Below are positions 24,001 to 27,000 of a stretch of DNA of 40,166 nt, piece after piece. Numbering within the stretch: the stretch's first letter is position 1; each line of letters starts with the position of its first letter. This DNA comes from a virus (lineage: Duplodnaviria > Heunggongvirae > Uroviricota > Caudoviricetes), in IMG/VR virus record IMGVR_UViG_2671180740_000012; one strand, given 5' to 3'. A program made the position numbers.

Positions 24001-27000
24001 ACGAAAACCGTCCATAAAACCTCTTCCTTTTTAATGAAAGATAAAAGAAAAGTCTCTATATCCTTTGAATTGTCTTTGGGAATAACTGTAATAAATGAAG
24101 TCCATTTTTCCAACTTTTTACTTTTTATCTGTTTGGCCTCCTTAGGTAGAAAAATTTTAGCATTTGATTCACGTTCCAGTCGGTCTAATAATTGTTTGGC
24201 ATATATATCAACAGGAACACTTATGTCACTTGCTTTATGACGTAATTCAATAGTTGGTGTATACTCGTTCGAAAAATAGAAAACACCATCACTGGGTGAT
24301 GTTATCAGAGTCTTTTCTAAATATGTGTATTTGTATGTTATTGGATTAAACCAATAACAGTACCATTCTGGCTTTAATTGCCCGCTATAAGATGTGTTAT
24401 TATTGTGAACCTTACACACAGGATAAATGTTTTCTATATCAGTCCACTTACTTTTATCCTCTTTTTTTTGTGTGTCTATGACGTTTGAGGAGTGTTTTTG
24501 GTTGAACACTTGAATATTTAAAAAAACTAAAAGTATGTTTCCGATAATAGATGCAATAAGCATTTTCTTCAGTTTTGAGTTATCCATATGCATCCCCTTC
24601 ATTGTGGACAATTACTCTTTGTCATAATTATAACTAAGTCATTATATTTCGTGTTTATTATGTTATAATGATATTTGAATGTATAATTATACTCCTGCAT
24701 CATTTTACACTCGACAGAATTTAATTTTTTTTGTATTTCTAGGCTCATTAAGTTTTTAATCTCTTCACCATCAAAAAATGGCGACATATCTTCATTAATC
24801 CCATAAATATTATAGTAATGATTAAGTGTATTTCCTTCTACGGTTGCAGCAATCCATGTAGTATAATCATCTACTTTAATAGGGAATTTTTTCTTGGATA
24901 GTTCATTTTTTAAGTATGAGGCAATTTTATCTGCATCTTCTTTGTTTGATAAAATATCATCAATTTTATTATCACCGAACTCAGTTGCAATTATCTTTAC
25001 AAAGATCAGCAGAATAATAAACATTAATGCTGCTCCTGTTTTTTTTATTGCTCCTAATATTTTGTTTCCTGTCATCTTGCAAATCTAACATAAAATTTAA
25101 TGAGTCTTATTAATAAATTTAATTTCTTATGAGTTGTCAACCTTCCATCAAGCAAACCGTGATCTAACAGCATGACTGTCTGCTTGATATGTGTTGTCGT
25201 CAACACAGTACAGTCCTTGAATACATATAACAAATTTGTTATGTTGATACCTATGAACTACACTATCGAATACTACAGTGAAGAGGTCCGGCTGGAAGTC
25301 GATCAGCTTCCATTGAGTATGCGTGTCCGATACAAACATCTCATTGAACGTATGAAGGTATACGGCAGCAATCTCGGAGAACCTCATACCAGCGCCTTTG
25401 GTGATGGGCTTTTCGAACTCAGAATTAAAGGCAACGATGGGATTGCACGTGTTTTTTACTGCACTCTGACAGGGAAACGCATCATTATGCTGCATAGTTT
25501 CATTAAGAAAACGCAGAAAACACCGCCAGCCGAACGCAAAAAAGCTGAAGCCAGAATGAAGGAGGTTAAGCATGACTGGTAAACGCATTACACCTACCAT
25601 GACACACGACGAAATGGCAGCCAAATGGATGGAGGATCCGGCTTTCAAAGCAGAATACGACGCCATCGCCGACGAATTCGCACTACTTGATGAAATGCTG
25701 GCAGCACGAAAAGAAGCAGGCTTAACCCAGGCTGAAGTTGCTGAACGTATGGGAACAAAAGCGACTGCGATCACCAGAATGGAAAGCAATCTTGCATCAG
25801 GTATAAGCGGCCCATCATTTGCCACACTGAAAAAATTCGCCCGTGCTACAGGGAAAAAACTCCAGATCCGCTTCGTTTAACTCTCCACTACCGCGCCGTC
25901 ATTCTGGCGGCGCTTTACCCCAGAGAAATATCAATCACCGGATTGCCACATCCCACTCCGGATCCTGCCATCTCAAATCCGGTGAATCATTTCTCGCCGG
26001 AATAACCATTACGTCCTTTTCCCTCCGCTCCCTTTCTATCGCCATCACAGCCAATGCTGCAACCATGATGTATTTTTGTTCGTCGGTTCCTGTTTCATAA
26101 CGACGCATGAGGGTAAACTCGGGGCGATCAGTAACCTCAATGATTTCGTTAATTTCTTTAATTTCGAGAGGAATATCCATGAGTTTAGTCTCCTTTGACA
26201 TTACATGCCCACACTGTTTAAAAGAGCGAGCTGTTATTGAGGCATTTGCCGAAAAACAAATTGAAAAAACACCTCTTTTTAACGTCGCTTTTGTATGCAG
26301 AAGTTGTCATCGAGGAGGTGTTGCTATTGTTGAAATCCCATCAGACCACTATCACGGCCCCATGGCGGAAAGCCAGAAAAAAGACCTCGATATTCTGATT
26401 TCAGGAAATAGCCAGTACCGTTTCCGCAAGATCTATCCTGCGGTCAAAAAAATTACCGCACCAGAATATACGCCCCCGGTTGCAGACCGTACTTTTGTTG
26501 AGGCAAAAGAGGATTTACAGAGGAGGCGGTACGACACAGTGGTAATTCTTTGTCGCAGAGTCCTCGATATCTCCACGAAAAAACTGCTCGGCGATGAAGC
26601 AGGAAAAGAATCGCTGTCGCAACGTATTCAGATGATTTACAAAAAAGGGCTGATCACTGAACAGATGAAGGAATGGGCTCATATTGTACGAATTGATGCC
26701 AATAAAGCAGTTCATACAGATGAAGTTTTCACACCAATTAAGGCAAGCCAGATCCTGAGTTTTACCGAAATGTTTTTAGTCTACGCCTTCACTCTGCCTG
26801 CAATGGTGGCAGCCAGACGTGAACAAAAAAGATCAGATTCAGCCTCTATATGAATCACTTTTCTGAACACGTAAGCCCCAGTCATTCACGACGGGGAGAA
26901 CATCAATCCCTCTGCACTCCCCCGCCAGAATGCCAGCACACGCTGCATCGTTTCGCTGTTACGGCACTCGCGACAAATTATGTTGTAGCGTCTGTCGTAG

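Follow-up and report, generated by a model that had tools for sequence, protein, structure and literature searches.

The DNA analyzed here is the virus record IMGVR_UViG_2671180740_000012 of IMG/VR (40,166 nucleotides [nt]; the whole stretch is called the window herein). It is a lambdoid prophage that converts for Shiga toxin 1a (Stx1a), and its positions 25100 to 25950 are 100% identical to Shigella phages POCJ13 and 75/02 Stx and to the stx1a-carrying prophage of Escherichia coli 2012C-4502. This region contains two overlapping open reading frames (ORFs) on the plus strand, which we interpret, with a probability of about 0.8, as a two-gene type II toxin-antitoxin cassette consisting of a Gp49 (Tad/HigB-like) toxin and an Xre antitoxin, brought along by the prophage as accessory cargo in its nin region and working by the mechanism proposed in the Discussion. 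The features at the locus are as follows.

25186-25913, plus strand: exchangeable cassette, from the 19-mer junction to the 3' hairpin
25186-25204, no strand assigned: 19-mer junction GATATGTGTTGTCGTCAAC, a conserved cargo-slot boundary that is not module specific
25190-25207, no strand assigned: inverted repeat TGTGTTG-TCGT-CAACACA, 46 nt upstream of the toxin start codon
25217-25222, plus strand: predicted -35 element TTGAAT, from cross-locus conservation
25227-25242, no strand assigned: perfect 16-bp palindrome ATAACAAATTTGTTAT, predicted operator of the Xre antitoxin, located in the promoter spacer and overlapping the -10 element
25240-25245, plus strand: predicted -10 element TATGTT (family consensus TAnnnT)
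25172-25582, plus strand: ORF in the toxin frame, the first ATG of which is at 25172
25253-25582, plus strand: toxin gene (109 amino acids, MNYTIEYY...), Gp49/HigB-like and of the RelE superfamily, assigned from profile, fold, and homologue starts
25560-25565, plus strand: Shine-Dalgarno sequence AGGAGG of the antitoxin gene, within Lys-Glu codons of the toxin gene and 6 nt before ATG 25572
25572-25880, plus strand: antitoxin gene (102 amino acids; an N-terminal segment of about 40 amino acids followed by an Xre-type helix-turn-helix [HTH]), assigned from the HTH_3 match, the PDB match, and synteny
25893-25913, plus strand: GC-rich hairpin at the right cassette boundary, 13 nt past the stop codon of the antitoxin gene

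An earlier reading of the sequence, termed the original prediction herein, had described a toxin-first pair with an 11-nt overlap, in which a HigB/Gp49-like toxin, an XRE antitoxin, and an upstream inverted repeat serving as operator form an autoregulated module. The arrangement was confirmed, with the ORFs 25172-25582 and 25572-25880 overlapping by exactly 11 nt (25572-25582). Both are antisense to the phage early-right operon and lie in the nin region; the genes surrounding them on the minus strand are the cII-like, replication (O/P-like), ren-like (DUF977), ninB, rusA, Q, and stxA genes. The nin region, on the strand opposite to the early-right operon, is the usual place and orientation of accessory "moron" genes, and from this orientation the module is expected to be expressed in the lysogen.

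Profile, start codon, and predicted fold of the toxin

The first gene product matched the Pfam family Gp49 (PF05973) with an E value of 1.8e-25 and a score of 89.3 bits (cut-off, 23.9 bits), over profile positions 3 to 90 of 90. Both this match and the HTH_3 match of the antitoxin are far beyond chance, and the profile search for the Gp49/HigB family, which had been proposed as a check on the original prediction, identified the expected family. A database search yielded 4,809 relatives of the toxin at E values of ≤1e-5, and PF05973 was carried by all 120 of the 120 homologues among the matches listed. The profile phrog_2523 matched the protein end to end from ATG 25253, and its homologues are mostly 109 to 110 amino acids long with the N terminus MNYTI.YY. 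Homologue length and N-terminal conservation place the toxin start at ATG 25253, and on the same grounds ATG 25172, ATG 25241 (used by PGAP, giving 113 amino acids), and ATG 25319 (used in the RefSeq phage records, giving 87 amino acids) were rejected as start codons.

The pair is already named in public annotation: RefSeq labels the first ORF "type II toxin-antitoxin system RelE/ParE family toxin" and calls the second either a transcriptional regulator or a helix-turn-helix protein, and in phage PhiR5_2 a 91%-identical match covering the 3' part of the toxin gene and the antitoxin gene is annotated as toxin HigB and antitoxin HigA. Across the promoter, the operator, and the 5' end of the toxin gene, the RefSeq phage records further list a "hypothetical protein" on the minus strand (25148-25339); this entry is probably spurious.

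A model of the toxin was predicted by AlphaFold (AF2) from an alignment of 27 sequences (predicted local distance difference test [pLDDT] score of 90; predicted template modeling [pTM] score of 0.84), with the secondary structure order b1-a1-a2-b2-b3-b4-b5-a3. Foldseek matched it to HigB of Streptococcus pneumoniae (6AF3/6AF4; probability of 1.0 and template modeling [TM] scores of 0.72 to 0.78, with 6AF4 on top at 0.76) and to HigB1 of Mycobacterium tuberculosis (7NBU/7AWK, including the ribosome-bound form; TM scores of 0.73 to 0.74), followed by YafQ, RelE, HigB2, ParE2, and YoeB. The predicted model has a RelE-like fold, an antiparallel sheet flanked by helices, and includes the long C-terminal helix described previously as a mark of Gp49-like toxins (PMC9098466). 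The catalytic residues of HigB1 have been defined by mutagenesis and cryo-electron microscopy (PMC9098466), and a profile alignment equated HigB1 E66, R68, R77, F93, K95, Q98, and K99 with toxin residues E55, R57, R66, F83, K85, Q88, and K89, respectively. Six of these (E55, R57, R66, F83, K85, and K89) are invariant in the 27-sequence alignment, and Q88 is the majority residue at a position that varies. As judged from this alignment, the toxin keeps an intact RelE-type catalytic constellation. Profile, fold, and catalytic residues agree with the original assignment to the Gp49/HigB-like toxins of the RelE superfamily.

Gp49 was the sole Pfam family matched by the toxin at E values of ≤0.01, with no match to PF05015, PF09907, or PF05016. 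Because PF05015 and PF09907 are not matched, "HigB" is a functional label for this toxin and not a statement of membership in the canonical HigB family. Phage N15 gp49 shares 44.6% identity with the toxin over 84% of its length. In addition, the C-terminal half of the toxin (residues 49 to 99) matched positions 233 to 283 of the 293 positions of the PADLOC model NsnC (E = 2.4e-10), which suggests that the defense-system protein NsnC carries a Gp49/RelE-like domain.

Antitoxin and conservation of the gene pair

The second gene product matched HTH_3 at residues 44 to 98 (E = 3.4e-11; 43.4 bits), and its best PDB sequence match was HigA of S. pneumoniae (6AF3_B; E = 1.1e-3), in line with the XRE-type antitoxin predicted originally. 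Its gene has the Shine-Dalgarno sequence AGGAGG inside the toxin gene; reading the sequence ahead of every candidate toxin start revealed no such element there.

To place the pair in a wider context, we compared it with 80 distant loci (L007 to L086) from Gammaproteobacteria, Betaproteobacteria, Nitrospirota, and Desulfobacterota that encode toxin relatives of 59 to 89% identity and are the best 80 of 512 confirmed. Together with the window and four E. coli prophage copies, they make up 85 loci. An antitoxin homologue (43 to 90% identical) directly follows the toxin gene in 79 of the 80 distant loci, the exception lying at a contig edge, so that 84 loci encode an antitoxin (79 distant loci, the window, and the four E. 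coli copies). Among these 84 loci, 75 have a gene overlap of 11, 14, or 17 nt and 74 have GGAG or GAGG no more than 16 nt upstream of the antitoxin start codon; within the antitoxin, conservation is highest in the HTH. The conservation of pairing, overlap, and Shine-Dalgarno sequence across loci shows a real and ancient two-gene module that is under selection as a pair; with the profiles, the fold, the catalytic residues, and the paired PDB matches, it supports the prediction of a type II toxin-antitoxin module in a prophage.

Several copies depart from this pattern on the toxin side. The toxin start codon is ATA in L005 and L006 (E. coli prophage or phage copies) and in L016 (Pantoea sp. B65), and premature stops shorten the toxin ORF in two Acerihabitans loci (L011 and L014). 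Judged from these sequences, some homologous modules have lost toxin expression yet keep the antitoxin. Compared with the window, L005 and L006 are 70% identical in the toxin and 90% identical in the antitoxin. In L003 (E. coli JNEC-KY176), a gene annotated as "HigA family addiction module antitoxin" (3795-4100) replaces the 3' hairpin directly after the Xre antitoxin gene and appears to be an orphan second antitoxin.

A conserved palindrome within the predicted promoter

The window has just two 16-bp palindromes with zero loop, and ATAACAAATTTGTTAT at 25227-25242 is one of them. When the 85 loci were anchored on the toxin start, the core of ATAACAAATTTGTTAT, TAACA-N4-TGTTA, was found with at most two mismatches in all 85 and exactly in 63, and it ends 10 to 11 nt before the start codon in 78 of the 85. 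Elsewhere in the same loci, 265,446 positions contained no exact core and a single one-mismatch match. The 85-locus consensus reads TTG-n6-AA-TAACATATTTGTTA-T-TAT-T-n6-(A/G)TG, which corresponds to a -35 TTG, a 17-nt spacer holding the palindrome, a -10 element TAnnnT, and the start codon 7 to 8 nt after the -10 element. The -10 positions T12, A13, and T17 are conserved at 100%, 100%, and 98%, respectively, and the TTG lies exactly 17 nt upstream of the -10 element with about 70% conservation; CCTTGAAT is invariant in the five E. coli prophage versions. Sequence upstream of this control element is unconserved across loci. The module promoter was deduced from this cross-locus conservation and not from a consensus scan.

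With the palindrome at the operator position in 85 of 85 loci, ATAACAAATTTGTTAT, and not the repeat at 25190-25207, is most likely the operator of the antitoxin, its role in autoregulation being predicted from sequence. In the window, ATG 25253 begins 7 nt after the -10 element. Since no space remains between the -10 element and the start codon for a leader or a ribosome-binding site, the toxin mRNA is predicted to be leaderless. The toxin start codon is ATG in 54 of the 85 loci, GTG in 25, and TTG in none.

The inverted repeat, the cargo-slot junction, and the cassette limits

The inverted repeat of the original prediction, TGTGTTG-N4-CAACACA, is present at 25190-25207, and in this respect the prediction was correct; its presence is not beyond chance, however, as 67 inverted repeats of this kind (arms of ≥7 nt, loops of 0 to 10 nt) are present in the window, and when the 100 nt upstream of the toxin were subjected to dinucleotide shuffling, 9.7% of the shuffles contained one. 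Among the close E. coli prophage copies, the full repeat occurs only in the window's own variant; in L004, L005, and L006, indels directly after CAAC break the right arm, which reads CAACTAC or CAACATA. Nothing like the repeat was found in the 80 distant loci. It was also considered as an RNA hairpin or terminator and rejected (-7.9 kcal/mol; z = -1.5; no T-tract).

The 19-mer GATATGTGTTGTCGTCAAC, which includes the left arm, the loop, and the CAAC of the repeat, is exact in the five E. coli prophage versions and in 33 IMG/VR contigs, 25 of which continue with the Gp49-Xre cassette and 8 with a parD cassette (L088, L091, L093, L094, L098, L104, L110, and L111). These eight contigs encode a ParD antitoxin (PF03693), and in L098, the one checked, an intact ParE gene (PF05016) comes next. 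Because GATATGTGTTGTCGTCAAC precedes both kinds of cassettes, the left arm, loop, and CAAC belong to a cargo-slot junction common to cassettes with unrelated antitoxins, and the repeat is probably a by-product of this junction and not an antitoxin operator. The sequence to the left of the 19-mer in the window differs as well, so that variable DNA adjoins the 19-mer on either side.

In L005, which has the commoner arrangement, the complement of the 19-mer provides the -35 element of a leftward promoter-like site, TTGACG-18-TATATT (10 of 12 consensus positions). Such a role would account for the conservation of the 19-mer. The window has no counterpart of the leftward site's -10 element or of anything downstream, an AT-rich insertion having taken their place. 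In L005, terminator-like hairpins with T-runs lie about 50 to 70 nt downstream of the leftward site; site and hairpins (2905-3018, minus strand) may form a small RNA unit that separates the cassette from the antirepressor gene.

The cassette limits were defined by megablast matches to differently flanked E. coli prophages, which extend from query position 87 (25186) to 814 (25913), and by alignments of the prophage versions, in which homology breaks at the same two positions. The hairpin at the right end (25893-25913) has a folding energy of -18.5 kcal/mol (z = -4.5), and none of 200 shuffles folded as well. It is kept in L004, where the flank diverges after it, and a different hairpin occupies the same place in the Edwardsiella locus L007. 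A terminator scan did not call the hairpin, the T-tract of which is only 3 nt; it is probably the 3' end of the operon transcript or a weak terminator.

Comparison with known systems

HigBA of S. pneumoniae (6AF3/6AF4) is the best PDB sequence match for both partners (toxin E = 8.7e-6, or 1.6e-8 with a profile) and supplies the top structural match of the toxin model. It shares the toxin-first order, the long C-terminal toxin helix, and an antitoxin made of an N-terminal toxin-binding part and a C-terminal Xre HTH; the toxins are only about 21% identical in the structural alignment, the pneumococcal toxin chain is longer (141 amino acids), and its locus is on a Gram-positive chromosome instead of in a prophage cassette. 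HigB1 of M. tuberculosis (the toxin of the TAC system, Rv1955; 7NBU and 7AWK) belongs to the same Pfam family, has a TM score of 0.73 and aligned catalytic residues, and is a ribosome-dependent mRNase (PMC9098466). Its K58, in contrast, has no conserved equivalent in the window toxin, and its system has three parts, including a SecB-like chaperone; no SecB-like chaperone gene was found after the antitoxin gene of the window, where the hairpin is followed by an opposite-strand gene (25935-26201) and by a DUF4145 gene as the next plus-strand gene.

The gp49-gp48 pair of phage N15, of which gp49 gives the Pfam family its name, is likewise borne by a temperate phage and has the toxin gene first, followed by an Xre antitoxin gene; it has been reported to be a stabilizing toxin-antitoxin system (Dziewit et al. 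2007, cited through PMC2701414 and PMC5906591), and the Tad-Ata module of Paracoccus plasmid pAMI2 stands with it among the closest known systems. The N15 genes abut, whereas those of the window overlap by 11 nt, and N15 gp49 has an ordinary AGGAGG leader and no TAACA-N4-TGTTA palindrome. On these grounds we rejected the idea that it shares the palindrome and the leaderless layout, and the regulatory layout is specific to the clade and not a property of the whole Pfam family. HigBA2 of Acinetobacter baumannii plasmid pAB120 also combines a Gp49-domain toxin, encoded first, with an Xre antitoxin; its operon promoter is repressed by the antitoxin, the toxin serving as corepressor (PMC5906591), which is the behavior we propose for the window module. 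HigBA2 is plasmid borne, and its operator and transcription start were not mapped in that study.

Canonical HigBA (Rts1 of Proteus vulgaris; HigB of E. coli K-12) resembles the window module in the toxin-first order, the RelE-superfamily mRNase, and the Xre-type antitoxin, and it is autoregulated via promoter palindromes (PMC11980606); its toxins belong to PF05015/PF09907, in contrast to PF05973 here. The paaR2-paaA2-parE2 system of an E. coli O157:H7 cryptic prophage is a prophage-borne type II module with a leaderless first cistron, paaR2, the leaderless translation of which was shown by 5'-RACE and N-terminal sequencing (PMC8630535). It differs in that the leaderless gene encodes a cI-like regulator, the toxin is ParE2, and there are three components.

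Neighboring genes

An AT-rich block (23400-25185; 27 to 33% GC, versus 43 to 53% around it) lies between the antirepressor gene (22509-23177, minus strand) and the cassette and looks like separately acquired cargo. It contains three genes, and the two on the minus strand had no Pfam, NCBIfam, or PADLOC match.

23522-23896, plus strand: DUF805 gene
23916-24611, minus strand: gene of unknown function, phrog_21161
24599-25075, minus strand: gene of unknown function, phrog_19308

On the other side, the DUF4145 protein gene (PF13643; phrog_1305, "DNA binding protein") at 26107-26853 (plus strand) is also antisense to the early-right operon. Its product has a weak PADLOC match to PD-T7-4 (E = 1.7e-3), and it may be another accessory or defense gene expressed in the lysogen. 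An Rfam scan of 24500-26500 gave nothing above threshold; the sole entry, isrD in a neighboring gene, was below threshold (22.9 bits versus a cut-off of 37; E = 0.12) and was dismissed as chance. The other zero-loop perfect 16-bp palindrome of the window, TTTTACGTACGTAAAA at 19821-19836, sits in the gap between stxA and the minus-strand hypothetical gene after Q (19890-20483); in the minus-strand direction, it is closely followed by two terminator-like hairpins, which have T-runs, and by the stx1 promoter region.

Discussion

Taken as a gene pair, the module is ordinary: it belongs to a well-known kind and had been annotated before. The mildly new point would be its layout, a predicted leaderless, clade-wide arrangement of promoter and operator. 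Tentatively, and at odds that we put a little below even, we propose for this widespread clade, across several phyla, that the leaderless operon mRNA begins at the toxin start codon, that a weakly translated toxin cistron precedes an antitoxin cistron whose strong Shine-Dalgarno sequence lies within conserved toxin codons, and that a single antitoxin-DNA recognition code is shared.

Several points weigh against the interpretation as a functional toxin-antitoxin cassette with this layout. A sigma-70 consensus scan of 24900-26300 called no promoter upstream of the toxin at a threshold of 9 of 12 positions, and the predicted promoter matches the consensus at 8 of 12. GTG is a poor leaderless start codon in E. 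coli, and 25 of the 85 loci use it. N15 gp49 has its ordinary leader and lacks the palindrome. Among the Gp49-family proteins of M. tuberculosis, HigB2 and HigB3 were nontoxic when expressed (PMC9098466), and on that precedent family membership does not guarantee toxicity. Literature searches found no work on this module or its immediate clade, either in Stx phages or as leaderless Gp49-type higBA.

Regulation could differ from this proposal in two ways. In the original prediction, the antitoxin binds the repeat at 25190-25207, which does stand upstream of the start codon and whose arms contain TGTTG and CAACA, resembling the half-sites TGTTA and TAACA of the conserved palindrome; two operators are also known in some type II modules. 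The half-sites are, however, in everted order relative to the conserved operator, the repeat lies upstream of the predicted -35 element, and all of the 80 distant loci that lack it keep the other palindrome. Close relatives with a broken right arm, and an unrelated ribbon-helix-helix antitoxin behind the same left arm, loop, and CAAC in the parDE cassettes, likewise tell against this role, and we regard the repeat as a quite improbable operator. A more serious competitor, though in our view still an unlikely one, is that the operon is not leaderless and is transcribed from a promoter in or to the left of the 19-mer or by read-through, with the toxin translated without a Shine-Dalgarno sequence and possibly from ATG 25241. 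The weak, uncalled promoter and the GTG starts would fit this explanation, as would the invariance of ATG 25241 in the five E. coli versions and the ATA at codon 25253 in L005 and L006, the reason why PGAP uses 25241. Yet ATG 25241 lies inside the conserved -10 element and the palindrome, which explain its invariance, and homologues typically begin at the equivalent of 25253. From TTG over 17 nt to TAnnnT and, after another 6 to 7 nt, to ATG or GTG, the spacing is conserved across phyla, in contrast to the random sequence further upstream, and the upstream flank of the cassette varies between prophages, so that an external promoter would not be conserved. Moreover, there are no TTG starts, and 79 of the 85 loci begin with a purine, as expected of a +1 nucleotide. 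We retain the leaderless layout with the operator at 25227-25242 as the preferred reading of the control region.

The activity of the Gp49 protein can be questioned as well. It may no longer be a toxin, in which case the pair would be a transcription-factor module with a small protein modulating an HTH regulator. The nontoxic HigB2 and HigB3 speak for this view, as do the homologous loci without a toxin start codon or with premature stops that keep the antitoxin; the decay of the toxin gene alone in a minority of loci nevertheless fits the expectation for a harmful toxin, the toxin copy of the window is intact, and R57, R66, K85, and K89, the equivalents of residues needed for HigB1 toxicity (PMC9098466), are invariant. 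We consider the loss of toxicity improbable. That the toxin is instead a ParE-like gyrase poison, and not an mRNA endonuclease, would agree with the generic RefSeq product name and with ParE2 and YoeB/ParE structures among the fold matches. These ParE matches have TM scores of about 0.50 and E values of >0.01, far behind HigB, HigB1, and the RelE-type RNases, however, and the absence of a PF05016 match and the retained RNase catalytic constellation also stand against a gyrase poison, as does the finding that studied Gp49-family toxins are ribosome-dependent mRNases (PMC11980606); this alternative seems hardly credible. An mRNA-cleaving toxin paired with an Xre antitoxin remains our reading of the module.

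In the mechanism that we propose, the sigma-70 promoter TTGAAT-17-TATGTT would start transcription at or beside A25253. The leaderless toxin cistron would be translated weakly and the antitoxin efficiently from AGGAGG, leaving the antitoxin in excess. An antitoxin dimer would bind 25227-25242 and turn the promoter off, probably with the toxin as corepressor by analogy to A. baumannii HigBA2 (PMC5906591), and the N-terminal segment of the antitoxin would wrap around and neutralize the toxin, as in S. pneumoniae HigBA (6AF3). Prophage loss, transcription shut-off, or infection by another phage could trigger loss of the antitoxin, upon which the freed toxin would enter the ribosomal A site and cleave mRNA, bringing translation to a stop (PMC9098466, PMC11980606). 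The outcome would be prophage stabilization or abortive infection. A 2025 survey describes PF05973 toxins as ribosome-dependent mRNases with toxin-first gene order, one member of which acts in abortive infection (PMC11980606).

The gene pair itself matters little: Gp49/HigB-like modules are common, temperate phages are known to carry them, and annotation pipelines name them routinely. More useful are the corrected operator and start codon and the testable prediction that the toxin cistron is leaderless across phyla. How toxin-first operons keep their antitoxin in excess was called an open question in a 2018 study of a related module (PMC5906591), and the layout, if true, would be a hard-wired answer; a near-invariant operator overlapping the -10 element would also make cross-regulation between copies possible. 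In Stx phages, the module is one of several exchangeable nin-region cassettes, and the same slot holds parDE in other phages. It could stabilize the Stx prophage or exclude competing phages and thereby bear on the persistence and spread of Shiga toxin genes.

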